64,000 nt of DNA from an uncultured Bdellovibrionales bacterium (GTDB lineage Bacteria; Patescibacteriota; Minisyncoccia; Moranbacterales; GWC2-37-73): positions 1,467-65,466 of the forward strand of contig CAZSTB010000005.1 of assembly GCA_964609855.1 (NCBI GenBank), written 5' to 3'. Shown piece after piece: positions 15,171-62,150 of the stretch. The notes beneath the pieces were generated by a model. The model had not been told where the DNA came from, ran no database searches, and was given only the letters and a program-made list of their open reading frames with translations. Position 1 is the stretch's first letter; each line of letters opens with the position of its first letter. A program made the position numbers and the translations under genes.

Positions 15171-15296
15171 GAAAATAATTTAGAATTCGGAATTTCGAAT
15201 AATATCTGAATTACATAACGTTTTAAAAATTCAAAATTTAATCATTAGAAATTCATTCAAAATTCAAAATTATAAATTCAAAATTTGTTAAATATT

Positions 15297-15587: not shown

Positions 15588-15600
15588 ACTTTTTTCATAT

Positions 15601-15630
15601 TTAGTATCCAGTATATGGTATCCTGTATGG
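15601..15630 (+). repeat. Heptamer-periodic array (..TAGTA|TCCAGTA|TATGGTA|TCCTGTA..), left flank of the four-helix-bundle pseudogene.
   Basis: 7-bp periodicity ending in GTA. Inverted relative to 16005-16038 (tttGGTA x4 on the opposite strand). Confidence 0.5.
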
Positions 15631-16001
15631 AATACAAAAATTCAAAAATACAGTCGTTTACTGATCTAGAAGCCTGGAGAGAGGGTCATAGATTAGTATT
15701 GGGTATTTATAGGATATCGCAAAAATTTCCAAAAGAAGAAATTTATGGTTTGGTTAGTTAGATGAGAAGGTGTTCAGTTTCCATAACCTCTAATATTGCT
15801 GAAGGTTTCAGTAGGAATACCGTAAAGGATAAGTATCAATTTTATTGTGTAGCACATGGTTCGCTGACTGAATTGCAAAATCAATTATTGATTGCTCGTG
15901 ATATAAAATATTTGGAAAAAGCTGAGTTTGATAAAATTGCTTCGCAAACAATCACAGTAACAAAATTACTTAATGGTTTAAAGAGAATTAAAAATCAATG
16001 A
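15627..16001 (+). pseudogene. Four-helix-bundle protein gene (TIGR02436-type, '23S rRNA intervening-sequence protein' family) disrupted by a 1-nt insertion near 15718 and an in-frame TAG (at a conserved Gln) near 15760.
   Basis: Upstream frame reads MEYKNSKIQSFTDLEAWREGHRLVLGIYRIS. The downstream frame reads ...QKFPKEEIYGLVS*MRRCSVSITSNIAEGF, which aligns with the intact paralog at 55314-55676 (...FPKTEQYGIISQMRRAAVSIPSNIAEG). Confidence 0.7.
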
Positions 16002-17191
16002 AAAAAATACCAAATACCAAATACCAAATACTAAATACCCATCGCGTTCGCGCGATGAATGGTGGTTATGCAGTGGCGGAAGCTTTTCGTCAAATTCACC
16101 CTGATGTGATGGCGGTATATCCGATTACGCCGCAAACCACGATCATAGAAACCTATGCGAAAATGAAAGCTGACGGACTAGTTGCGACGGAGATTATCCA
16201 AGCTGAATCCGAGCATTCAGCCATGAGCGCAACAATTGGAGCTTGCAGTGCGGGGGCGCGAGCAGTGACAGCTTCAAGCTCGCAAGGAATTTTACATATG
16301 GCGGAAACTTTGCCGGTAGTGAGTGGCCTAGGTCTTCCTATTGTGATGGCTGTAAGTTCTAGAGCGCTTTCCGCACCGCTTAATATCCATGGCGAGCATG
16401 GAGATGTGATGGCTGTGCGCGACATGGGCTGGATTCAGATTTTTGCTGAGCAGGCGCAAGATGCATATGATAACACTATAATTGCCCTCAGGTTGGCTGA
16501 AAAAGCGGGGGTGCCAGTTATGCCGATTATGGATGGATTCCATACCTCACACACTACAGAGCGCGTGGAGATGATTGAAGATGAAATTATCCGGACTTTT
16601 GTCGGTGATTTTGCGCCCGAGCAAAAACTAACGGATTTTGAGGACCCTATCACACTTGGAACCTTGGCGCTGCAAAACACTTATTTTGAATTTAAAGTTG
16701 AGCAAGAAAAGAGGATGGAAAAAGCCAAATCTGAATATGTGAAAATTTGCAGTGAGTATGCAAAAATTTCTGGAAGAAAACATGGTCTTTTTGAATCCTA
16801 CAAAATGAAAGATGCTCAAGAGGTTATTGTGATGATGGGTGCAACTGCAGGCACAGCTAAAGATGTTGTGGATGCATTGCGCGAAAAAGGCAAAAAAGTT
16901 GGACTCTTGAAAATAAATTTATATAGACCCTTTCCCTATAAAGAAGTTGGCAATGAGCTTGCGCACATCAAGAAAATTGCAGTATTGGATCGCGCTATTT
17001 CATTCGGCGCTTACCCGCCGCTCTATCAAGACATAGTAATTGCTATGCAACATGCTGGCAGCCGTAAGCATGAAGTTTCCAGTTATATTTATGGACTCGG
17101 TGGACGAGATACGATGCAAAAAGATATCGAAAAAGTTTACAATGATTTAGAGGAGGGAGAGATTTCTAACAAAATAAAATACCTAAAGTAA
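15998..17191 (+). CDS. porA: Pyruvate:ferredoxin oxidoreductase alpha subunit. The N-terminal 16 aa are encoded by the heptamer array; the functional start may be the internal Met near 16049.
   Basis: ...YPITPQTTIIE motif of PorA. ATGA overlap with the upstream ORF stop. Confidence 0.8.
   Translation: MKKIPNTKYQILNTHRVRAMNGGYAVAEAFRQIHPDVMAVYPITPQTTIIETYAKMKADGLVATEIIQAESEHSAMSATIGACSAGARAVTASSSQGILHMAETLPVVSGLGLPIVMAVSSRALSAPLNIHGEHGDVMAVRDMGWIQIFAEQAQDAYDNTIIALRLAEKAGVPVMPIMDGFHTSHTTERVEMIEDEIIRTFVGDFAPEQKLTDFEDPITLGTLALQNTYFEFKVEQEKRMEKAKSEYVKICSEYAKISGRKHGLFESYKMKDAQEVIVMMGATAGTAKDVVDALREKGKKVGLLKINLYRPFPYKEVGNELAHIKKIAVLDRAISFGAYPPLYQDIVIAMQHAGSRKHEVSSYIYGLGGRDTMQKDIEKVYNDLEEGEISNKIKYLK
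16005..16038 (+). repeat. Heptamer tandem repeat (ccaaata)x4-5, right flank of the pseudogene cassette. Translated as KIPNTKYQILNT at the annotated PorA N-terminus.
   Basis: ataccaaataccaaataccaaatactaaatacc. Confidence 0.6.
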
Positions 17192-17283
17192 TTTTATTTT
17201 TTAATTTACAATGATCAATTTACAATTTACAATTAAATATCAATTACACAATGTAAAATGAAAATTTTGAAAATTCAATGAAA

Positions 17284-17307
17284 ATTGAAAATTGTGAATT
17301 GAAAATT
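17284..17307 (+). promoter_or_regulatory. Conserved 24-mer ATTGAAAATTGTGAATTGAAAATT directly upstream of porB. Identical copy at 48808-48831, related copy near 58807-58840.
   Basis: Exact 24-nt identity between two unlinked intergenic loci. Confidence 0.5.
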
Positions 17308-17315
17308 ATTTAAAT

Positions 17316-19496: not shown

Positions 19497-19567
19497 GCGT
19501 ATCTTGTGTCTCGTATCTTGTATTTCATATGAATACAGGATGCTAAATACAAAATACTGAATACGAA

Positions 19568-20314
19568 ATGGAAGTTTGGATTTATACACTAGCTAGTGTC
19601 TTTCTAGTGAGTGCGGTTTCCTTGATTGGAATCGTTACAGTTTTTTTTGGTGAAAAAAAATTGAACAACGTCCTTCGTTTATTTGTCAGTTTTTCCGTGG
19701 GAGCTCTTCTGGGAGATGCTTTTATTCATCTTATTCCCGAGGCTTTTGAGGTAAGTAGTATCGCAGCATCATTTTCCATATTGACAGGTATGATTTCTTT
19801 TTTCATTTTGGAAAGGTTGATCCAGTGGCATCATTGTCATGAGGTCGGATGTGAAGAACATGGACACGCACTTCCATATGTAATCTTGACAGGCGATGGG
19901 CTGCATAATTTTATTGATGGCATAATAATCGGTGCTAGCTATATGGTCAGCATCCCTGTTGGAATTGCGACAACACTGGCTGTTATCTTTCATGAAATCC
20001 CGCAGGAAATCGGAGATTTTGGAACGCTTTTGTACGGAGGCTTTTCCAAGGCTAAGGCGTTGCTTTGGAATTTCCTGAGTGCGCTGACTTCCGTTGCTGG
20101 CGCTATCATGGTCTTGCTTGTTAGTTCTCAATTTGAATCGGTAACAAGCATACTTGTTCCATTTGCTGCTGGAGGATTTATCTACATCGCAACCGCTGAT
20201 ATGATCCCGGAACTCCATAAGCATAAGGTGCATAAATTTTCTGAAACTTTCAAGCAGGTTTTCTTCTTTATTTTGGGTATTGCAATTATGTATAGTTTAT
20301 TGTTTTTAGAATAA
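19568..20314 (+). CDS. zupT: ZIP-family divalent metal transporter (ZupT-like).
   Basis: HNFIDG and HEIPQEIGDF ZIP signatures. Eight TM segments. Confidence 0.8.
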   Translation: MEVWIYTLASVFLVSAVSLIGIVTVFFGEKKLNNVLRLFVSFSVGALLGDAFIHLIPEAFEVSSIAASFSILTGMISFFILERLIQWHHCHEVGCEEHGHALPYVILTGDGLHNFIDGIIIGASYMVSIPVGIATTLAVIFHEIPQEIGDFGTLLYGGFSKAKALLWNFLSALTSVAGAIMVLLVSSQFESVTSILVPFAAGGFIYIATADMIPELHKHKVHKFSETFKQVFFFILGIAIMYSLLFLE

Positions 20315-40630: not shown

Positions 40631-40706
40631 CAGGAATTAGCTAGTAGGATTTAGCTTGTAGCAAACAGCTTTCCTGATTCCTAACTCCTAATTCCTAACT
40701 CCTGAT
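40631..40706. repeat. Inverted pair of heptamer arrays with no cargo: caggaat|tagctag|taggatt|tagcttg|tagc ... loop ... cctgattcctaactcctaattcctaactcctgatt. Predicted long imperfect hairpin.
   Basis: 7-bp periodicity (TAGNNNN / NNNNCTA). The right array is the reverse complement of AGGAGTTAGGAATTAGGAGTTAGGAATCAGG, matching the arrays at 55307 and 57070. Confidence 0.55.
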
Positions 40707-40734
40707 TTTTAATATTTAATACTACAACGTTAGT

Positions 40735-42885
40735 ATGGCTAATAACGAAATCGCATTCTTTGCAAAAACAAATTTTAGAAATGAAGAAAGAGTTTTCGGA
40801 ATAAAAACTGACGACCGCACCCGGCACATGTACATCATTGGAAAGACCGGTATGGGTAAGACGAACTTGCTGGAAAATCTGGTAGTGCAAGATATTCGCA
40901 ATGGTCATGGAATTTGCTATATCGACCCGCACGGCGACACGGCTGAAAAACTTCTAAAAGCAGTACCGGCGAATCGTATCAATGATGTTATTTATTTGAA
41001 TCCGTCCGACCAAAATTTCCCTTTGGCATTTAATGTTATGGAATCTGTAGATCCTGATTATCGCCATTTGGTGGCGTCGGGCTTGATTGGCGTTTTCAAA
41101 AAAATCTGGGCCGATTCTTGGGGACCTCGCTTGGAATATATTTTACGTAATGCTATCTTAGCGCTTTTGGAATATCCTGGCAGTACTTTGCTTGGAGTTA
41201 CACGTATTTTGGTAGACAAGAAATATCGCGAGAAAGTCGTTGAAAAAGTTACCGATCCTGTAATCAGGCAATTTTGGGTTGATGAATTTCCAAAATGGAG
41301 CGACAAAGTTTTGCAGGAAGTGGTATCTCCGATTCAGAATAAGGTTGGACAATTCTTGTCCAGTTCTTTGATTAGAAACATTGTCGGTCAGACGCAATCT
41401 TCCTTTGATATTAGAAACGCGATGGATACTAGAAAGATTTTAATTCTAAATCTTTCAAAAGGAAGAATCGGTGAAGATAACAGTGCCTTGTTGGGCGCGA
41501 TGATGATCACTAAGATTCAGCTGGCCGCCATGGGACGTGTTGATATTCCTGAAGAAGATCGAAAGGATTTTTATCTGTATGTCGATGAGTTTCAAAACTT
41601 CGCGACGGAATCTTTTGCAAACATTTTGTCTGAAGCTCGAAAGTATCGTTTGAATCTTATTTTAGCGAATCAGTATATCACTCAGATCGACGAAAAAGTT
41701 CGCGACGCGATTTTTGGTAATGCCGGAACGATTATTTCATTTCGTGTGGGCGCTACGGATGCGGAATTTTTGGAAAAAGAATTCGCACCAGTTTTTGTGC
41801 AGAACGATATTGTGAACCTTCCGAAATATAATGTATATCTGAAACTCATGATTGATGGTATTGCGGGCGACGCTTTTTCGGCAAAAGTTTTGCCTCCGGT
41901 GTACATTGGCGACACCATTGATAATGAGGAAAAAATTATTGCGGCTTCACGTGAGCGTTATGCTTCAAGCAAGGAAGAAGTTGAAGACAAGATTTCTCGT
42001 TGGGCAGGTATTATGCCGGCACAAGGATTTCAGACTGTGAACAAGGGTCCGATGGCAGGAGCTACTACCTATCCGAATCCTGCAGCCCGAACGGCGCAAA
42101 ATTATACCCAAAGTCAGCAATTTCAGCCTGCACAAAGCGGTTCGCAAAATTCTGCAAATCAAGTGCAGAACAACTCTCCGCAACCTCAAGCTCCCAAATT
42201 CGAGCCTCAGCGACCCCAAGTGGCTCCACCTGAGCTGCCAAAGGAGACGCGGCTGCAATTTACAGCTCCTTTGCCACCTGTAGCCCCTCAGCAGCCCCAT
42301 AGCTCGATTGAACCTCAGAAAGTTATACAAGCGCAGCCCCAATTCCAGTCAGCTCCCGAATTCGACGATTTAGGAGAATATAATCAACCGGAACCTCCTA
42401 AGCCTGTCTTTGAAGCGGTTTGCGATATGTGCGGCGAAAACATTCAAGTTCCATTTCAGCCGGATGGAAAACGCCCAACTTTTTGCAAGGATTGTCTCAA
42501 GGATTATCAGCGAATGACGGCAAAGGAGAAATTAAACCAGGAAAGAAAGATGCAGCGCGAGCAGGAGGACTCTCGTCAGCAAGCTGTTCCTTTTCAGCCG
42601 CCAAGAATGTCACAGCCAACTCCGAGTTATCCGCCAACGCATGGGATGCAACAACCACAGTATGCCGCACCTTCAAGATCACAGCGAGAGCAACCTAGAA
42701 CATCTACCCCAACCGAAAGACGTGTTGAACCGAAATCTTACGCTCCGCAAGAAGCTCCAATGTCACTTTCTCAAATGTCTCACATTGCACCTAAGAAATT
42801 TAAGTCGCAACGTCAGCGTCCGAATGTGAATTTGGATGAAGTGAGAAATTTGATCAATCAAACGCGCAGTGGCGAAGAAAAATAA
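40735..42885 (+). CDS. TraD/TraG/VirD4-family (type IV coupling protein-like) P-loop ATPase. Soluble form with a Q/P-rich low-complexity linker and a C-terminal CxxC...CxxC zinc ribbon.
   Basis: Walker A YIIGKTGMGKT, Walker B LYVDEFQNF. The C-terminus CDMCGENIQVPFQPDGKRPTFCKDC is a zinc ribbon. Confidence 0.5.
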   Translation: MANNEIAFFAKTNFRNEERVFGIKTDDRTRHMYIIGKTGMGKTNLLENLVVQDIRNGHGICYIDPHGDTAEKLLKAVPANRINDVIYLNPSDQNFPLAFNVMESVDPDYRHLVASGLIGVFKKIWADSWGPRLEYILRNAILALLEYPGSTLLGVTRILVDKKYREKVVEKVTDPVIRQFWVDEFPKWSDKVLQEVVSPIQNKVGQFLSSSLIRNIVGQTQSSFDIRNAMDTRKILILNLSKGRIGEDNSALLGAMMITKIQLAAMGRVDIPEEDRKDFYLYVDEFQNFATESFANILSEARKYRLNLILANQYITQIDEKVRDAIFGNAGTIISFRVGATDAEFLEKEFAPVFVQNDIVNLPKYNVYLKLMIDGIAGDAFSAKVLPPVYIGDTIDNEEKIIAASRERYASSKEEVEDKISRWAGIMPAQGFQTVNKGPMAGATTYPNPAARTAQNYTQSQQFQPAQSGSQNSANQVQNNSPQPQAPKFEPQRPQVAPPELPKETRLQFTAPLPPVAPQQPHSSIEPQKVIQAQPQFQSAPEFDDLGEYNQPEPPKPVFEAVCDMCGENIQVPFQPDGKRPTFCKDCLKDYQRMTAKEKLNQERKMQREQEDSRQQAVPFQPPRMSQPTPSYPPTHGMQQPQYAAPSRSQREQPRTSTPTERRVEPKSYAPQEAPMSLSQMSHIAPKKFKSQRQRPNVNLDEVRNLINQTRSGEEK

Positions 42886-48717: not shown

Positions 48718-48807
48718 AAGGCTCAAAATAACCAATTTTCAATAATCAATTCTCAATTCACAATGAATTTTCAATTTTCAATTTTTTAATTGCAAATTCT
48801 GGTTTTA

Positions 48808-48831
48808 TTGAAAATTGTGAATTGAAAATTG
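48808..48831 (+). promoter_or_regulatory. Second copy of the conserved 24-mer ATTGAAAATTGTGAATTGAAAATT, about 25 bp upstream of the rplU promoter.
   Basis: Identical to 17284-17307. Confidence 0.5.
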
Positions 48832-48857
48832 GAAATTCTGGCAAAATGCCTTTGTAC

Positions 48858-53870: not shown

Positions 53871-55301
53871 TTAGGAAGCTGGCTTTATCTTTGGTCCTTC
53901 GCTTGTATCTTCGACCACGAAGCCATGTTTTTCAATAAGTGCTCTGAGTTCGTCTGATTTTTTGAAATCTTTTTGATCTCTGGCAGCTTCGCGTTTTTGC
54001 ATGAGTTCTTTCACTTCTGTAGGAATTTCTGCTTGACCCTGTAGGATGAGTCCAAAGACGCTATTCATTCTGTTCCAGAGCGACAAAATTTTCTTGGCAT
54101 CCTCGGAGCTGATGTCCTCATTGGTTTGGCGAATATTGAATTCGGTTATAAGTTCATAGAGTTGACTTAATGCAAGCGGAGTGTTGAGGTCATCATCTAA
54201 GGCGCTCTCAAATTTTTCCTTGTGAGATGTGATTTCAAATTCTTTGGCGCTTGGTTTTTCTGATTTGGCTAAAATTTCTAAATTCAAAATGAAATCATTA
54301 ATTTTTTGCAAGTTCTTATGAGCTTGCATTATGGCATCCCAAGAAAAATCCATTTGAGAACGGTAATGCGATGAAAGGAATAGGACCCTCAGATCCATCG
54401 GTGAAAAACCTTTCTCAATGATGTCTTCAAGTTTGTATAAATTACCCTTGGATTTGCTCATTTTTTCTCCATTCATCAAGAGATGGCGACCATGAATCCA
54501 GAATCGGACATATTTTTTTCCGGTGAAGCATTCAGTTTGTGCAATTTCTGCTTCATGATGCGGGAAGATGTTATCTTCGCCACCAGTGTGAATATCAATG
54601 GTTGAACCGAGGTATTCCGTGCTCATGGCGCTGCATTCAATATGCCAGCCTGGATAACCGATTGACCATGGAGAATGCCATTTTAAAAGATGGGCTTCAG
54701 GCGCTTTGAGCCAAAGTGCGAAATCCCAGGGATTTCTTTTGTCTGGATGTTCTTCGAGGCGAGCTCCTACTTTTAAATTTTCCAGCGTATTGCCAGAAAG
54801 TTTTCCGTATTCTTCAAATTTGGTCACATCAAAAAATACATTGCCATTCACTTCGTAAGCGTAGCCTTTTTCAATCAGTCCTTCGATTATTTTAATCATT
54901 TGCGGAACGTGCTTGGTGGCGCGTGGGAAATATTGAGCAGGCAAAATATTCAATTGTTTTTCAACATCCTTAAAATATTCCTCATAAAATCTGGCTATTT
55001 CTTCAGGGGTCTTTTTTTCAGCTAAAGCAGCCTTAAGCATCTTATCTTCGCCAGCATCACCTTGGGCAATATCATCAGCGGTAAGATGTCCGACATCGGT
55101 AATGTTTTTGATTTGTCGAACTTCATAGCCAATGTATTCCAAATAGCGTCTTACGATATCAGAAAGTAGGTAGGCACGAATATTACCAATGTGCACAAAG
55201 CCGTAAACTGTGGGACCGCAAGTATACATCCCAACCTTACCGGGATTAAGCGACTCAAATTCTTCCTTTTGTTTGGAGTAGGTATTGTAAATCTTTAACA
55301 T
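53871..55301 (-). CDS. cysS: Cysteine--tRNA ligase.
   Basis: Class I motifs: HIGN (HIGH variant), KMSKS, and zinc-binding Cys residues. Confidence 0.9.
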   Translation of the reverse strand: MLKIYNTYSKQKEEFESLNPGKVGMYTCGPTVYGFVHIGNIRAYLLSDIVRRYLEYIGYEVRQIKNITDVGHLTADDIAQGDAGEDKMLKAALAEKKTPEEIARFYEEYFKDVEKQLNILPAQYFPRATKHVPQMIKIIEGLIEKGYAYEVNGNVFFDVTKFEEYGKLSGNTLENLKVGARLEEHPDKRNPWDFALWLKAPEAHLLKWHSPWSIGYPGWHIECSAMSTEYLGSTIDIHTGGEDNIFPHHEAEIAQTECFTGKKYVRFWIHGRHLLMNGEKMSKSKGNLYKLEDIIEKGFSPMDLRVLFLSSHYRSQMDFSWDAIMQAHKNLQKINDFILNLEILAKSEKPSAKEFEITSHKEKFESALDDDLNTPLALSQLYELITEFNIRQTNEDISSEDAKKILSLWNRMNSVFGLILQGQAEIPTEVKELMQKREAARDQKDFKKSDELRALIEKHGFVVEDTSEGPKIKPAS

Positions 55302-55306
55302 AGGCG

Positions 55307-55340
55307 TTAGGAATTAGGAGTTAGGTTGTAGGGATGAGGA
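55307..55340 (+). repeat. Heptamer array TTAGGAA|TTAGGAG|TTAGGTT|GTAGGGA|TGAGGAT, left flank of the intact four-helix-bundle gene. Overlaps its last codons.
   Basis: Strict 7-bp periodicity. Inverted relative to 55727-55759. Confidence 0.7.
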
Positions 55341-55676
55341 TAATTTATTTAGCATCCTCATTATTTCCTGTAGTAAGCAATCAATTGCTTTATACTTCAT
55401 TGGGTCAGAATAATTCAATCTTTTTGTGATTTCTATCTGCGTTTCAAGTTCTGATCCACTACCGTAAGCAATTATTAAAAAATGCCTGAATTCTTTTCTG
55501 CTGCTTCTTCTGCGGCCTTCAGCTATGTTTGAAGGGATAGAAACGGCAGCACGTCTCATTTGAGATATGATGCCATATTGTTCAGTTTTTGGAAAGTCCT
55601 CGGTTAGTTTGTATATTTCCAAGACCAAATCCATGGATTTTTGCCAAACAATTAGGTCTTTGTATGAAGTTATCAT
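55314..55676 (-). CDS. Four-helix-bundle protein (TIGR02436-type; the family first found in 23S rRNA intervening sequences), intact copy.
   Basis: ITSYKDLIVWQKSMDLVLEIYKLTEDFPKTEQYGIISQMRRAAVSIPSNIAEG matches the family core. Confidence 0.75.
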   Translation of the reverse strand: MITSYKDLIVWQKSMDLVLEIYKLTEDFPKTEQYGIISQMRRAAVSIPSNIAEGRRRSSRKEFRHFLIIAYGSGSELETQIEITKRLNYSDPMKYKAIDCLLQEIMRMLNKLSSSLQPNS

Positions 55677-55726
55677 GAGGATATGGAATTTGAATATTTA
55701 CTTCTAATTCTTTATGCTGGTAATAA

Positions 55727-55759
55727 GCTACAACCTAATTCCTACAACCTAAATCCTTA
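55727..55759 (-). repeat. Heptamer array, right flank (reverse complement AGGATTTAGGTTGTAGGAATTAGGTTGTAGC). Forms an inverted pair with 55307-55340 around the gene.
   Basis: gctacaacctaattcctacaacctaaatcctta on the + strand. Confidence 0.7.
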
Positions 55760-55765
55760 TAGATA

Positions 55766-56668
55766 CTATAGCCAATTTTTGAATTTGAATATTATAAAAG
55801 TTGAAATTGCGATGGCGGCCATTGCTCCAACATGAATCCAGAAAAGTGTTGGATTATTGGAGATGCTAGCACTCATAGAGATGATGCTGGAGTACAGCGT
55901 CAAAAGAAATATGATTATTGAAAAAGTTGTCAGAACTTTCATTGTGAAATCCAGTTTGTTTGAAAGCAGGGAATTGTTAGTTTCCTCCATAGATTCAATT
56001 GTTTCTTTATTGCTTTCCAGCGCATTCCAGATGCGGATGTTTGTGCCAGCCAAGTTTTGAAAATATGGCGCAAGGTCAGATGGAATCAGCTCAGTTTTCA
56101 TTTGAGCCAAAGATTCAATGATGTGTCGTTGAGGTTTCAGAGTTCTTCTGAAATTCAAAATATCACGCTTCACAATGGAAATTTCAAAAACCATTTCTTT
56201 TTCATTTTCGTTAAAAACCTGCTCCTCAATGTTAAGAAGTTTTTCATGAATATGGTCGATTCTTGGAAAACAGGAATCAAGCAGCATTTCCAGAATGCTG
56301 TAAAGTAGATGCGATGGACTTTGACTCATGAAAATTCGCCTTTTCCCTTCACTGGCTTCCAGTTCTGCGAAAAAACTGTCCAATTCAAGTATTTCCTTAT
56401 TGTGTCCTGTAATGAGATGATCCTTGGTAATCACAATGTCTAATTCTCCTGGATAAGTCGTTCTTATTTTCGTATCGTAAAGCGGGATGTGAATTGTCAG
56501 AAAAACACAATTATTGTAAAGAGTAGCTTTTGCTCGATAGGTTGGCGTAGCAAATTCTTCGATGGCAATTGGATGGATATCAAAATTTTCCTGCAAATAA
56601 AGTACATCGTCCGCGCTAGGATCCGAAAAGTCTGTCCAGGTTATATTTTTGAATGTTACTTGTTTCAT
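55766..56668 (-). CDS. CorA-like divalent cation transporter family protein. Divergent; the canonical GMN motif is not evident.
   Basis: About 300 aa: cytoplasmic domain plus two C-terminal TM helices, as in CorA/ZntB. Confidence 0.45.
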   Translation of the reverse strand: MKQVTFKNITWTDFSDPSADDVLYLQENFDIHPIAIEEFATPTYRAKATLYNNCVFLTIHIPLYDTKIRTTYPGELDIVITKDHLITGHNKEILELDSFFAELEASEGKRRIFMSQSPSHLLYSILEMLLDSCFPRIDHIHEKLLNIEEQVFNENEKEMVFEISIVKRDILNFRRTLKPQRHIIESLAQMKTELIPSDLAPYFQNLAGTNIRIWNALESNKETIESMEETNNSLLSNKLDFTMKVLTTFSIIIFLLTLYSSIISMSASISNNPTLFWIHVGAMAAIAISTFIIFKFKNWL

Positions 56669-56810
56669 GTTTTTCTTTTTTGTTTTTTAGTTGCACGAAT
56701 CTCTTGCCTGGTAAATATTTTTGTGTCTAATTTAAAAGGCATTATTATATTAAATTATACACTAAATCGCTTGATTGACAAAGCAAGGCAATCTATGTAG
56801 ATTAATAGAT

Positions 56811-57074
56811 ATGAAAGTGATGAAATTAGCTAAAAAAATGTTCTTATTTTTGATTAAAGTCTATCAAAAAGTTTTTTCTCTTGATCATGGGATACCTTCA
56901 TTTTTTTGGGGTGGTAGGATTTGTAGATTTCATCCATCCTGCAGTCATTATATGTATCAGGCAGTTGAAAGATTTGGAATTATTAAGGGTTTCTGGCTTG
57001 GATTGAAGAGATTTTTCAGGTGCCATCCCTGGAACGATGGGGGATATGATCCGGTGCCGAAGAGCAGGAGTTAG
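56811..57074 (+). CDS. yidD: Membrane protein insertion efficiency factor YidD.
   Basis: [18 protein letters not shown]...[14 protein letters not shown] is a near-complete YidD signature. Confidence 0.85.
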
Positions 57075-57180
57075 GTCGTAGGAAGTAGGTGGTAGGATGA
57101 AACTGGAATTATGAATTAGGCTGTGGGAATGATGTGGTAGGATTTAGGAATTAGGTGGTGGGTTGTGGTGATTAAAATTG
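57070..57180 (+). repeat. Two direct heptamer arrays (GCAGGAG|TTAGGTC|GTAGGAA|GTAGGTG|GTAGGAT ... TAGGATT|TAGGAAT|TAGGTGG|TGGGTTG|TGGTGAT).
   Basis: 7-bp periodic TAGG repeats in the same orientation. No cargo ORF between them. Confidence 0.55.
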
Positions 57181-57280: not shown

Positions 57281-57463
57281 ATGGAAAATTGCGACGGAAA
57301 AGTAATAAACATGAAATGTCTCGGTTGCCAATTTCTTCCTTTGTGTTTGGAGGAAAAGGTGTTTTCAAAGGAGTTGGATGGAGATAAGGAAAAGTTGATC
57401 TTGAACTCTTGTCCGAAAACGGAAAAGGGCGATGGTCACATCGCTTGTTGTTGCTGCGATTAA
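57281..57463 (+). CDS. Cys-rich small protein (60 aa, 9 Cys, C-terminal ACCCCD) with a strong SD.
   Basis: AGGAGG 8 nt before the ATG. CxxC-type spacing in several places. Confidence 0.45.
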   Translation: MENCDGKVINMKCLGCQFLPLCLEEKVFSKELDGDKEKLILNSCPKTEKGDGHIACCCCD

Positions 57464-57557: not shown

Positions 57558-57797
57558 ATGCCGAGGAACCAGAGAGAAACAACCAGAATCATCGGCCGTG
57601 GAAAAAAAACAAGAAGCGCGGGCTTGATTGTTGCACCTCCAAGCAATGATGAGATCATCGTAACCGTTCATCCATCCTGTCCACTTAAGTCAGGTGGTTA
57701 CGTAGCGCCGGGAAATGGCCCGTTCGATACCATGCCACTTTCAAGCAGGGAATTGGATATCTGTCACAATAAATGCGGAAAAGCGTGCGTGCTGTAA
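57558..57797 (+). CDS. Small Cys-containing protein (79 aa) with an SD.
   Basis: AAGGAGTG 6 nt before the ATG. Terminator aaaccgctctga-gtatat-cagagcggttttt at 57818-57848. Confidence 0.45.
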   Translation: MPRNQRETTRIIGRGKKTRSAGLIVAPPSNDEIIVTVHPSCPLKSGGYVAPGNGPFDTMPLSSRELDICHNKCGKACVL

Positions 57798-57868
57798 TTA
57801 GCATGTCGCTTAAAGAAACCGCTCTGAGTATATCAGAGCGGTTTTTAATTTTTTTGTAAAAATAAAGA

Positions 57869-57895: not shown

Positions 57896-57964
57896 TCGGC
57901 ATATTATAATGAATTTGTAATAAAGCTAGGAAGCTAAAAAGCTAAATCCTAATAAGTTGTTCAT

Positions 57965-58708
57965 ATGAACGAAAGACAAGAAAAAATTTTAGCAGCTGTC
58001 GTTGAAGAATATACTCAAACGGCTGTTCCTGTTGGGAGTCAGATTCTGGCTGGTAAATATGGCTTTCAGGTAAGCTCGGCAACCATCAGAAATGACATGA
58101 TGACTCTTGAGGAGGAGGGATATTTATATCAGCCACATATTAGTGCTGGTAGAATTCCAACTGATAATGGTTACAGATATTTTGTGGAAGAGGTCATGAA
58201 AGATAAGGTGCTTTCAAAAGAGGAACAGCAGATAATGCAAAAAGAATTTTTAAAATTAAAGGCTCAAAATAAACGACTCACGAGAACAACAGCGAAACTA
58301 CTTTCCCATGTTAGCGGAAATTTTGCTATCAGTAGTTTGCAGGAAAACGATGAATTTGCGGAATTTGGAATGCGCGAACTTATGGAGGCTCCGGAATTCC
58401 AAGAAATGGATGAAATGTGCAGGGTAGTTGAAATGCTGGATTATATCGATGAGAAATTTGACCAGCTGACAAAGGGTATTAAGGAGGGAGAAACGAGGAT
58501 ATTCATTGGGAAAGAAAATCCTATCCATCCAACTGCCAATTGTTCTATGATTGTTTCCCCCTATAGGTTGAAAAACGGCGAGAAAGGAATCCTGGCATTA
58601 ATCGGACCAAAAAGAATGAAGTATGCTCAGAACAAGTCTATGATTGATTATGTAAAAAAGCTCCTGGGAGCATCAATGGTGATAATAGTAATGATAAATA
58701 TCGTTTAA
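57965..58708 (+). CDS. hrcA: Heat-inducible transcription repressor HrcA (short form).
   Basis: N-terminal winged HTH (ILAAVVEEYTQTAVPVGSQILA). CIRCE site upstream. grpE-dnaK downstream. Confidence 0.8.
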   Translation: MNERQEKILAAVVEEYTQTAVPVGSQILAGKYGFQVSSATIRNDMMTLEEEGYLYQPHISAGRIPTDNGYRYFVEEVMKDKVLSKEEQQIMQKEFLKLKAQNKRLTRTTAKLLSHVSGNFAISSLQENDEFAEFGMRELMEAPEFQEMDEMCRVVEMLDYIDEKFDQLTKGIKEGETRIFIGKENPIHPTANCSMIVSPYRLKNGEKGILALIGPKRMKYAQNKSMIDYVKKLLGASMVIIVMINIV

Positions 58709-58845
58709 ATAATTTTCAATGCTCAATTCTCAATTTTCATTGAATTTTCAAATCATAATTATTGATAATGCATCTGTTTAAGAACTTTTTCATTGTAAAT
58801 TGATTGTGAATTGAAAACTGTAAATTGAAAATTGATATTAAATTT

Positions 58846-59774: not shown

Positions 59775-60050
59775 GGCACACCTCTTGAATTCATTGTTAA
59801 CGTACTAACGAGTATAGATTTTATATCACATATCATGTTCATTGTCAAGTACCGGGAAATAAAAAAAACCCGCATGGGCATTTGTTGAAATATCCCGCAC
59901 GGGCGAGCAGGCAAGCGCTGTGCCAAGCTCTGGATTCAGTATACAACGCACAATAGACAATATGCAACAGACAAAAGACAAAAGACAACATGCAAAATAC
60001 AACAGTCAAATGTAAAATACAACAACTACAATTCTAAACATGCAGGCACA

Positions 60051-60224: not shown

Positions 60225-62150
60225 ATGGGAAAAATTCTCGGAATCGATCTCGGAACCACTAACAGCGCCATGGCGGTTGTGATGGGTGGAAAACCTGAAA
60301 TCGTGGAAAACAAAGAAGGTGCAAGAACAACCCCTTCAATGGTTGCAATTTCAAAAACCGGAGAAAGATTGGTTGGGCTTTTGGCAAAACGTCAATCAGT
60401 GACCAATCCTGCCAACACTCTTTATTCAATCAAGCGTTTGATTGGACGAGCTTATCATGACGCTGAAGTTCAGCGCGATGAAAAACTTATGCCATACAAG
60501 ATTGTGCATGCTGGAGAAATGGTGAAAGTGACCATGGGAGACAAGGACTACACTCCGCAAGAAATTTCTGCCATGATTCTTGGAAAATTGAAAGCTGACG
60601 CCGAAGAAAAACTGGGAGAAAAAATCACTGACGCTGTAATCACGGTTCCTGCATATTTCGATGACGCTCAAAGAAAGGCAACTAAGGAAGCTGGAGAAAT
60701 CGCTGGTTTCAATGTTCGTCGAATCATCAACGAACCGACAGCCGCAGCCTTGGCTTATGGTTTCGATAAAAAAGCTGACGAAAAAATCGCAGTCTATGAT
60801 CTTGGTGGAGGAACTTTCGATATTTCCATCTTGGAAGTTGGGGGAGACACGGTTGAAGTTAAATCAACCAACGGAGACACCCACCTTGGAGGAGATGACT
60901 TCGATCAGATCATCATTCAATGGATCATCGATGAATTCAAAAAACAGGAAGGAATCGATCTTTCAAATGATCCTCTTTCGCTTCAAAGAATCAAAGAAGC
61001 TGCTGAGAAAGCTAAGATCGAACTTTCAACTGCGGCTGACACTGAAATCAATCAACCGTTCATTACATCCGATGCAACCGGTCCGAAACATTTGGTGATG
61101 AAGATGACCCGCGCAAAACTTGAAGAATTGGTTGGCGAGCTTGTTGAAAAAACTTTGGAACCAGTCAAGAAAGCTCTTGCTGATGCAAAACTAACAGTTG
61201 GCGACATCAATGAAGTTGTGATGGTTGGAGGAATGACCCGCATGCCGCTTGTTCTTCAGACTGTTGAGAAATTCTTCGGCAAGAAACCGAACATCTCAGT
61301 GAACCCTGACGAAGTTGTTGCGCTTGGAGCTGCAATTCAAGGAGGAGTGCTGGAAGGTTCAATGAAAGATGTTTTGCTTTTGGATGTCACACCACTTACA
61401 CTCGGAATCGAAACAATGGGAGGAGTTTCAACTCCGCTTATTGATCGCAACACAACTGTCCCAACTTCAAAAACTCAGACATTTTCAACTGCCGCTGACA
61501 ATCAGCCAGGCGTTGAAATTCACGTGCTCCAAGGTGAACGCGAATTGGCTTCTGGAAACAAGACTCTTGGAAAATTCCTGCTTGATGGAATTCCACCAGC
61601 ACCACGCGGAGTTCCTCAGATTGAAGTTGAATTCGACATTGATGCAAACGGAATTCTGAATGTGACTGCCAAAGACAAAGCAACTGGAAAATCTCAGTCA
61701 ATCAAAATCGAAGCTTCATCCGGACTTTCAAAAGAAGAAATCGAGAAGATGAAGAAAGATGCTGAAATGCATGCTGAAGAAGACAAGCAAAAGAAAGAAT
61801 TGATTGAAGCTCGCAACATGGCTGACACTCTTGTCTACACAACCGAGAAAGCGATGCGAGATGCTGGCGATAAAGTGACCGAAGAGGAAACTAAGCCAGT
61901 GAAAGATGCAATCGAAGAACTTAACAAAGTGAAAAACGGAGAAGACTTGAATGAAATCAAGGCCAAAACCGAAGCGCTTTCACAAGCTGCCCAAAAGATT
62001 GGTGAAAAACTTTACGCTGCCGCTCAAGAAAAAGAGAAGGCTGATAAAGAAGCCAACGCCGGCGCAGAAGGCGAGACAGTGAAAGAGGCCGAAGTTGAAT
62101 CAGATAAAAAAGATGAGACTGAGGAAAAGAAAGACGAAGACAAAAAATAA
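60225..62150 (+). CDS. dnaK: Chaperone DnaK (Hsp70).
   Basis: [16 protein letters not shown] and other Hsp70 signatures. EEKK-rich C-terminal tail. Confidence 0.95.

Follow-up and report, generated by a model that had tools for sequence, protein, structure and literature searches.

What is a gene of the 23S rRNA intervening sequence (IVS) protein family doing between two protein-coding genes, and why is it framed by inverted arrays of a 7-nt repeat? The question arises from a 64,000-nt stretch of contig CAZSTB010000005.1 (assembly GCA_964609855.1), called here the window, in which an initial annotation described a 120-amino-acid four-helix-bundle gene as a mobile or RNA-processed cassette between cysS and a corA-like gene. 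We found the array-bracketed layout to exceed chance at this locus, to recur almost throughout a survey of homologous loci from more than 10 phyla, and to be shared with a homologue that sits within 23S rRNA. With moderate confidence, and by analogy with IVSs that carry an open reading frame (ORF), we read the element as an IVS-type cassette that resides in an mRNA spacer instead of rRNA and is probably excised by RNase III.

The cassette unit consists of a G-rich heptamer arm, a four-helix-bundle ORF, and a complementary C-rich arm, about 460 nt altogether. In sense-strand order, the locus contains the following features:

56668 to 55766 (55766-56668), minus strand: corA, upstream host gene, co-oriented with the cassette (PF01544, E 3.6e-44).
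55728-55760, minus strand: 5' arm, G-rich on the sense strand, AGGATTTAGGTTGTAGGAATTAGGTTGTAGC, an inverted repeat that pairs in both the minimum free energy (MFE) and the centroid fold.
55677-55727, minus strand: spacer of 51 nt between the 5' arm and the cargo ATG, without promoter-like site and without Shine-Dalgarno sequence.
55314-55676, minus strand: cargo gene, four-helix-bundle protein of 120 amino acids (PF05635 / TIGR02436; ORF and profile matches).
55302-55341, minus strand: 3' arm, C-rich on the sense strand, ATCCTCATCCCTACAACCTAACTCCTAATTCCTAACGCCT, an inverted repeat that pairs in both folds and ends at the cysS ATG.
53871-55301, minus strand: cysS, downstream host gene, co-oriented with the cassette (TIGR00435, E 1e-143).

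The coordinates, sequences, and neighbors of the gene agree with the initial annotation, as does its bracketing by inverted heptamer arrays: the left array has six NNAGGNN units on the plus strand at 55300-55341 (including TTAGGAA, TTAGGAG, TTAGGTT, GTAGGGA, and TGAGGAT), and NNAGGNN recurs on the minus strand in the right array (55732-55759). As inverted repeats, the arms are 27-30 nt long with 80-85% complementarity and are separated by 394-396 nt. The 3' arm contains the stop codon and the last six codons of the cargo ORF and is abutted by the cysS ATG (55299-55301), and the 5' arm begins 5 nt past the corA stop codon; the cassette therefore occupies the entire spacer between the two host genes. 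Both the heptamer pattern and the flank complementarity around the cargo gene exceed chance. With at most one mismatch, TTAGGNNTTAGG occurs 16 times in the window, whereas shuffled sequences average 3.35 occurrences and never exceed 9, and the flank-to-flank inverted-repeat score of 14 is higher than in all 402 same-geometry controls in the window (maximum 13).

The cargo protein matches PF05635 (23S rRNA-intervening sequence protein) over profile positions 1-106 of 106 with E 1.1e-41 and 141.7 bits (cutoff 33.8), and TIGR02436 (four helix bundle protein) with E 6.5e-40 and 135.7 bits (cutoff 24). Its core, QMRRAAVSIPSNIAEG, has the family motif Q-x2-R-x3-S-I-P-S-N-I-A-E-G and the later S/E/T/Q positions, and nine residues, P29, E32, Q39, R42, N50, E53, G54, S73, and E76, are invariant in 73 homologues, for which the median isoelectric point (pI) is 9.1. 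The nearest solved structures are 2gsc (XCC0516, E 1.2e-25) and 2rld, with five chains each, and XCC0516 has been described as a homopentameric toroid (PMC4990558). The sole other Pfam match is a weak one to bAvd (PF22296, 25.4 bits against a cutoff of 40), and the model for Avd of diversity-generating retroelements (DGRs) is likewise below its cutoff (NF033474, 29.9 against 80). No match to the protein was found among the PADLOC anti-phage defence models at E <=0.01 or in the phage collection. The family is very large, with 23,845 clusters at 50% identity having E <=0.001 and 9,515 having E <=1e-10, and has no known function outside DGR Avd; its most plausible role is nucleic acid binding, which is also seen in its relative Avd.

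The layout is not confined to one copy. A second four-helix-bundle gene in the window, located in the por operon, has inverted heptamer flanks made of a different unit, and the idea that other copies might lack arrays thus found no support:

15600-15630, plus strand: 5' arm of the second cassette, NNNGTAT units, overlapping the ATG at 15627; the arms pair in the predicted fold.
15627-16001, plus strand: second four-helix-bundle gene, by sequence comparison about 40% identical to the first, between porD and porA.
16005-16039, plus strand: 3' arm of the second cassette, AAATACC five times, the complement of GTAT-type units; inverted-repeat score 12.

The score of 12 was equaled or exceeded by 2 of the 402 controls. 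The gene has an in-frame TAG (15759-15761) at the codon for the family-invariant Gln39 with the remainder of the ORF intact, and could be a recent pseudogene, an assembly consensus error, or a case of read-through. The other two spacers of the porG-porD-porA-porB operon contain AAAATTC arrays (15226-15285) and an AATTTAC/GAAAATT hairpin (17192-17309), and each junction of the operon is therefore occupied by heptamer repeats.

We scanned one genome per species and obtained 81 genes in 80 loci, the phyla including Patescibacteria, Bacteroidota, Acidobacteriota, Bacillota, Pseudomonadota, Planctomycetota, Elusimicrobiota, and Ignavibacteriota. The array-bracketed layout recurred almost throughout, with a unit that differs lineage by lineage and even between paralogues within one genome. 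Defining periodicity as at least 16 of 21 matches at lag 7, we found it in the upstream flank of 39 of the 81 genes (other lags 0-6; controls 32 of 1826) and in the downstream flank of 36 (other lags 0-7; controls 36 of 1826); both flanks were periodic in 24 of the 81, compared with a single one of the 1826 control placements. Flank complementarity exceeded the 95th percentile of controls for 62 of the 81 genes, a level that by definition about 5% of controls reach. In the converse direction, 42 of the 45 inverted heptamer pairs found 251-600 nt apart in these loci and the window enclose a member of the family, and the three exceptions are cross-pairings between neighboring elements.

The cassettes resemble each other in more than their arms. 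Their stems (n = 64) have a median length of 26 nt with 87.5% Watson-Crick pairs, and the period of the arrays is 7, sometimes 8 (L003, L169), and never 6. Co-orientation with both neighbors was seen in 56 of 77 cassettes, the median spacers to the neighbors being 57 and 53 nt, and only a median of 20 nt separates the 5' arrays from the start codon, so that a promoter would have little room. The polarity is nearly constant: the upstream arm has more G than C in 38 of 43 cases and the downstream arm more C than G in 36 of 43. Stop codons are present in all three sense frames in 28 of 45 5' arms. We rejected insulation by stop codons as the cause of the polarity, since stop codons contain no C and base composition alone may account for the pattern. 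Protein identity correlates with the sharing of flank 7-mers (Spearman 0.23, Mantel p ~0.001), but this is expected from co-inheritance and shared base composition and was therefore not taken as evidence of specificity.

The link to rRNA, which the initial annotation drew from the architecture, is directly supported by cassettes that reside there. A homologue from Azospirillum lipoferum 4B AZO_p2, found in the plasmid collection, sits within 23S rRNA (Rfam LSU, 906 bits), and its IVS has the arms CAGAGGA CGGATGA CAGAGGA upstream and TCCGTCC TCTGTCT TCTGTCA downstream, the G-rich arm being first; these heptamer arms close a stem of about 25 bp with z -9.1. The IVS of Coxiella burnetii is 428-444 nt long and has a 28-bp terminal stem with an S23p ORF in the loop, two or three copies of GACAGAT ahead of that ORF, and mapped RNase III sites in the stem, the 5' site being at the first GACAGAT repeat (PMC4990558). 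The window cassette has the terminal inverted-repeat stem, the S23p-family ORF in the loop, and the sporadic presence among close relatives that are typical of IVSs. IVSs proper are inserted in an rRNA gene (23S helix 9, 25, or 45) and are cut from the precursor by RNase III without re-ligation. The window cassette does not reside in rRNA, its neighbors being corA and cysS and an Rfam scan of the window having found one tRNA only and no rRNA, and we therefore term it IVS-type and not an IVS.

The sporadic presence became apparent when we compared the corA-cysS site among relatives, using protein searches and contig look-ups. Named relatives of its CysS identify the window organism as a Candidatus Moranbacteria. 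In the relative with the most similar CysS (L168, 80% identical to that of the window), the site is without a cassette and consists of an 86-nt spacer with a one-armed TTAGTAT array. The next one (L169, CysS 79%) has a different cassette with 8-nt TTAGCTTN arrays and a four-helix-bundle protein 68% identical to that of the window. Cassettes of the same TTAGGNN type as in the window are found in L170 (CysS 75%, four-helix-bundle protein 87%) and in L083-L087 (CysS 75% in L083, four-helix-bundle protein 83-84% in L083 and L087). The TTAGGNN-type proteins are mutually 83-93% identical, compared with 75-77% for CysS and 71-77% for CorA between the same genomes, which makes them better conserved than their essential neighbors; the L169 protein is only 64-68% identical to them, though its CorA is 87% identical to the CorA of L170. 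These sequences indicate at least one loss and at least one replacement of the cassette between corA and cysS, and cassette gain, loss, and replacement run on a genus or family timescale. The mobility suggested in the initial annotation was thus borne out on an evolutionary scale, including the empty site that it proposed to look for. A metagenome scan with CysS for empty sites returned relatives of at most 53% identity, which are too distant.

At 4-fold degenerate sites, the four-helix-bundle gene is 0.32-0.57 identical and the neighbors 0.27-0.45, these values coming from 31-38 sites only, and the sites are largely to nearly saturated in the four-helix-bundle gene, corA, and cysS. The protein identity of 83-93% therefore implies strong purifying selection on this basic, toroid-forming protein, and such selection implies a function. 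On the 3' side of the cassettes in L083 (1860-1985), L084, and L085 (1750-2030 in both), we noticed a higher-order repeat in which the arm and a spacer of about 20 nt occur two or three times. The European Nucleotide Archive assemblies of L083-L085 have runs of N exactly there, from which it follows that heptamer arrays break short-read assemblies.

How would such a cassette be expressed and processed? The MFE and centroid structures of the 470-nt sense strand both have the arms paired (z -4.6), so that the long stem across the ORF envisaged in the initial annotation is indeed predicted, and the foot of this predicted stem holds the cysS start codon. Promoter-like and terminator-like sites were searched for and none was found within the cassette; the best promoter-like match lies upstream of corA:

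56754-56781, minus strand: TTGTCA-16-TATAAT, 11 of 12 positions, a consensus match only and a candidate promoter for a corA, four-helix-bundle gene, and cysS transcript.

With no recognizable promoter of its own, the cassette probably depends on read-through of transcripts that start at the corA promoter. Pairing of the arms in the operon transcript would form an imperfect stem of about 27 bp with the ORF enclosed in its loop, and, as in ORF-carrying 23S IVSs, RNase III probably cuts this stem, which would free the cassette RNA and split the host messages. Repeats of 7 nt, sometimes 8, absorb the gain or loss of units while pairing persists, and they often set stop codons in all three frames.

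Several observations weigh against this reading. Among the mismatches of 64 stems, G:U and A:C are about equally frequent (59 and 56), and without a G:U excess on the sense strand the stems do not specifically point to selection acting on the sense RNA; the complementarity of the arms may be kept at the DNA level. RNase III cleavage and co-transcription in the window organism are what we infer from the predicted stem and from analogy. The reading does not account for the constant polarity, with the G-rich arm 5'. No mechanism of movement is visible: no transposase, integrase, or reverse transcriptase adjoins the cassette, and no target-site duplication was noticed at its ends, where no systematic search was made. 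Identical cassette copies in different contexts were absent among the surveyed loci, and movement is therefore slow; the empty site of L168 has an unrelated one-armed array and no footprint of the window arms. Finally, the 80 loci were picked by similarity to the window protein (at least 48% identity), and more distant members of the family may differ.

The arrays are not limited to the cassettes. The window contains 23 lag-7 segments, almost all outside ORFs, whereas other lags give 0-9 segments, except the harmonic 14 (also 23). Many of these arrays form short-loop inverted pairs without a gene, for example at 19498-19570, 48731-48840, 17192-17309, and 58708-58843, and the gene-less hairpins fold better than shuffled sequences, with z between -2.5 and -4.6. 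One of them belongs to the repeat family of the corA-cysS cassette, and further arrays of that type lie elsewhere:

40632-40707, plus strand: empty hairpin of the TTAGGNN/CCTAANN family, with a G-rich arm, a 9-nt loop, a C-rich arm, and no ORF, z -3.1, between DUF8128-like and VirD4-like genes.
57064-57168, plus strand: direct TTAGGNN-type arrays just past yidD, identified by their repeat pattern, without an obvious partner arm nearby.

The hairpin at 40632-40707 reaches 73-78% column identity when aligned to the cassette arms, and with a shift of one unit its 3' arm and that of the cassette have CCTAACTCCTAATTCCTAAC in common exactly. Such empty heptamer hairpins look like cargo-less relatives of the cassette and may be either deletion derivatives or part of a protein-plus-repeat partnership that follows RAYT/REPIN logic (REP-associated tyrosine transposases and the hairpins formed by doublets of repetitive extragenic palindromes, REPs). 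Among the surveyed loci and the window, 29 empty hairpins have a loop of at most 60 nt and no gene inside. Of 29 hairpins with loops of at most 250 nt, 20 have 20% or more of their 7-mers in common with the cassette of their own locus, compared with a mean of 1.6% for cassettes of other loci, some of these hairpins reusing a cassette arm. Between co-oriented genes, the empty hairpins have the same polarity as the cassettes in 18 cases and the opposite in 8. Lag-7 arrays outside cassettes number 16.4 per 100 kb in the four-helix-bundle loci and 4.05 in CysS-sampled loci (other lags 0.2-3.2), a comparison confounded by taxonomy. We also sought a filled state of the 40.6-kb hairpin spacer: in four relatives the orthologous spacer is devoid of four-helix-bundle genes, and no filled and empty pair that retains the arms was found. 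The spacer has different arrays in each of the four relatives, which implies fast array turnover.

Other arrays in the window have features of their own. Directly ahead of the VirD4-like gene start, a ACTACAACG(T/C)TAGT motif (40715-40737 in the window) is conserved in five of five genomes (the window and L178-L181), with arrays upstream of it that differ completely among them. A CTAAATCCTAA-type stretch lies directly ahead of the hrcA ATG (57925-57955) and, together with the arrays past yidD, encloses two small Cys-rich ORFs (57281-57463 and 57558-57797), which have no Pfam match, and a terminator-like hairpin near 57815-57845; heptamers may here flank a unit that carries another cargo. AT-rich AATTTTC/GAAAATT-type hairpins between co-oriented genes (17192-17309, 48731-48840, and 58708-58843) have the C-containing arm first, the polarity being opposite to that of the four-helix-bundle cassettes and of most empty hairpins elsewhere, and may form a separate class. 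A one-armed ACAAAAG/ACAACAT array (59950-60010) is located upstream of a 641-amino-acid ORF (60225-62150).

The abundance of hairpins bears on a second reading, compatible with ours and in our view rather unlikely, in which the four-helix-bundle toroid is the trans-acting partner of genome-wide heptamer hairpins, in the manner of a RAYT and its REPINs. Such a protein might bind the hairpins, either regulating RNA processing or translation at many spacers or driving the spread of the hairpins, and its own gene might lie between two copies of its target. The strong purifying selection, the invariant polar residues (E32, Q39, R42, N50, E53, S73, and E76), and the high median pI would fit this, as would the 29 empty hairpins, the 20 of 29 that share 7-mers with the local cassette, the difference in array density (16.4 vs 4.05 per 100 kb), and the fact that the family is known or was found here in the taxa noted for such repeats (Nostoc, Xanthomonas, Geobacter, Beggiatoa, and cyanobacteria). 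However, paralogues in one genome have different units, which makes a single regulon unlikely, the hairpin counts partly reuse a cassette arm, the density comparison is confounded by taxonomy, and the AT-rich hairpins of the window have the opposite polarity. We also know of no nuclease or recombinase motif in the protein.

The arrays could instead be terminal inverted repeats of a DNA transposon, or of something like a miniature inverted-repeat transposable element (MITE), mobilized by a transposase encoded elsewhere and with the four-helix-bundle gene as a passenger. The cassettes do end in inverted repeats, show presence/absence polymorphism, and have short counterparts without cargo, and Geobacter insertion sequence elements have been reported at fixed distances from such repeat pairs (PMC2700814). 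We nevertheless consider this improbable: the arm sequence differs between cassettes even within one genome, only the period being kept, so there is no common terminal sequence; no cognate transposase is adjacent, no target-site duplication was noticed (again without a systematic search), and no identical copies exist at different sites; and the cargo is almost always of one family (42 of 45), with a fixed polarity relative to the ORF. Mere coincidence, with a generic intergenic simple-sequence feature inherited once per flank, draws on the 23 largely noncoding lag-7 segments of the window and on the different arrays in orthologous spacers of relatives. The arrays are indeed a widespread simple repeat, as in the refuting case named by the initial annotation; they are not, however, uncorrelated with the gene, since both flanks are periodic in 24 of 81 homologues against 1 of 1826 controls and 42 of 45 long-loop pairs enclose a family member. 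Each flank moreover has one arm only and the two are complementary, as are those of 62 of 81 homologues across phyla, and a true rRNA IVS, that of Azospirillum, carries the same arms. The flank controls and the long-loop pair counts already contradict coincidence, which we regard as very improbable. Still less credible is a remnant or accessory of a DGR with the protein as Avd: the weak matches to PF22296 (25.4 bits) and NF033474 (29.9 bits) point that way, but both are below their cutoffs (40 and 80), the phage collection gave no match, and the neighbors are corA and cysS and not a reverse transcriptase or a pair of template and variable repeats (TR/VR). We therefore rejected this candidate.

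If the architecture is general, the ORF-carrying rRNA IVSs, the heptamer repeats of cyanobacteria, Xanthomonas, Geobacter, and Beggiatoaceae, and the four-helix-bundle genes wedged into operons may be one kind of element. Perhaps, though this is less likely than not, the toroid proteins and the heptamer hairpins form a single, hitherto unrecognized, bacteria-wide class of self-propagating elements, the ORF-loaded ones autonomous and the empty ones non-autonomous, with the protein generating, spreading, or preserving the arms of its own cassette. Were that true, rRNA IVSs, heptamer repeats, and one of the largest uncharacterized small-protein families would have a single explanation. The host operons include por in the window and CRISPR-Cas in cyanobacteria, and array-bracketed genes occur in cultured strains with finished genomes, namely Nostoc punctiforme (pNPUN01, CAGGAGT/CAGAATT arms), Anabaena sp. 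90, and Picosynechococcus PCC 7003, so RNA processing and the target of the protein are open to experiment in cultivable strains.

There are practical consequences as well, as arrays cause false N-terminal extensions of downstream genes and breaks in assemblies. The longest-ORF call of porA starts at 15998, reading through the C-rich arm, with the likely ATG at 16055 (15998-16057), and the RefSeq cas4 of Anabaena sp. 90 is similarly extended through the C-rich arm (L174, 1008-1100). Many entries for the family in the representative library have 35-45 surplus residues or are merged with the gene that follows. Some individual loci of the survey deserve mention. Cassettes are located inside CRISPR-Cas operons on pANA02 of Anabaena sp. 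90 (L174, between cas6 and cas4) and on a plasmid of Picosynechococcus PCC 7003 (L175, between cmr2 and cmr3). In five Patescibacteria lineages (L013, L015, L017, L022, and L037), a cassette lies directly upstream of one and the same gene, with the N-terminus MQFKVPQF..., either as an old conserved site or as a recurrent target. Two loci have atypical flanks: on plasmid 1 of Gemmatirosa kalamazoonensis (L176), both ORF-adjacent arrays are C-rich when read along one strand and their G-rich partner is found at a greater distance upstream, and on the gamma plasmid of Nostoc PCC 7120 (L172), the flanks of the gene are noncomplementary and an ISL3 transposase is adjacent.

The initial annotation knew of no description of heptamer termini for this family. 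In full-text literature, with subscription-only papers outside the coverage, we found no paper that ties PF05635/TIGR02436 genes outside rRNA to inverted heptamer arrays, so the statement stands for those genes; it does not for the family as a whole, as an earlier study had seen heptamers in the Coxiella IVS, at its 5' end (PMC4990558). What appears to be new within that coverage is the IVS-type cassette in mRNA spacers and the heptamer arms as a family-wide trait.

Several known systems resemble the cassette in part, bacterial heptamer repeats among them. Cyanobacterial short tandemly repeated repetitive (STRR) sequences are reported heptamer repeats, and the arrays of the window are like them in being tandem 7-nt units that are intergenic and in excess over other periods. 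Xanthomonas has 70-75 convergent pairs of GGGAATC repeats, interpreted as G-quadruplexes (PMC4692102), Geobacter metallireducens has 24+21+8 pairs of 7-8-nt repeat sites in operon spacers, interpreted as global-regulator sites (PMC2700814), and Beggiatoaceae and cyanobacteria have TAACTGA repeats ending at start codons (PMC4679880). Like the cassette arms, these repeats are tandem 7-nt units in co-directional spacers, often in convergent pairs and often ending at the next start codon. Unlike here, the papers on them read them as G-quadruplexes, as integration host factor (IHF)/HU or global-regulator sites, or as post-transcriptional signals, without a link to four-helix-bundle genes.

In REPIN-RAYT systems, two inverted copies of a short repeat flank a gene, and further copies without cargo are scattered as hairpins. 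The cassette follows this logic, with a repeat-flanked gene and cargo-less hairpins in operon spacers of the same genome. The protein, however, is a four-helix bundle and not a tyrosine transposase of the HUH (Y1) type, the arms are tandem heptamers of variable sequence and not one conserved palindrome, and the cassettes have several paralogues per genome, each with its own unit. DGR Avd has a homologous fold (2gsc and 2rld, five chains each; XCC0516 toroid, PMC4990558) and is a basic protein, but the window protein is below the Avd cutoffs and has no reverse transcriptase or TR/VR context. MITEs and the attC cassettes of integrons are likewise short, promoter-less, and orientation-biased, with ends set by structure and not by a fixed sequence; the four-helix-bundle cassette differs in having no transposase or integrase, in showing no target duplication as far as noticed without a systematic search, and in having one arm on each side of the ORF and a cargo of a single family.

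The closest likeness is with the ORF-containing 23S IVSs of Leptospira, Coxiella burnetii, and Brucella in helix 45, which have an S23p/PF05635 ORF in the loop as the window cassette does. The two are alike in size (about 430-460 nt), in the terminal inverted-repeat stem of 25-30 bp, and in their sporadic distribution, and heptamers are found at the 5' end in Coxiella and as full arms in Azospirillum. Unlike these IVSs, the window cassette lies between protein-coding genes, where excision by RNase III is probable by analogy; and unlike the Coxiella IVS ORF, reported to be decaying (PMC4990558), its protein is under strong purifying selection.

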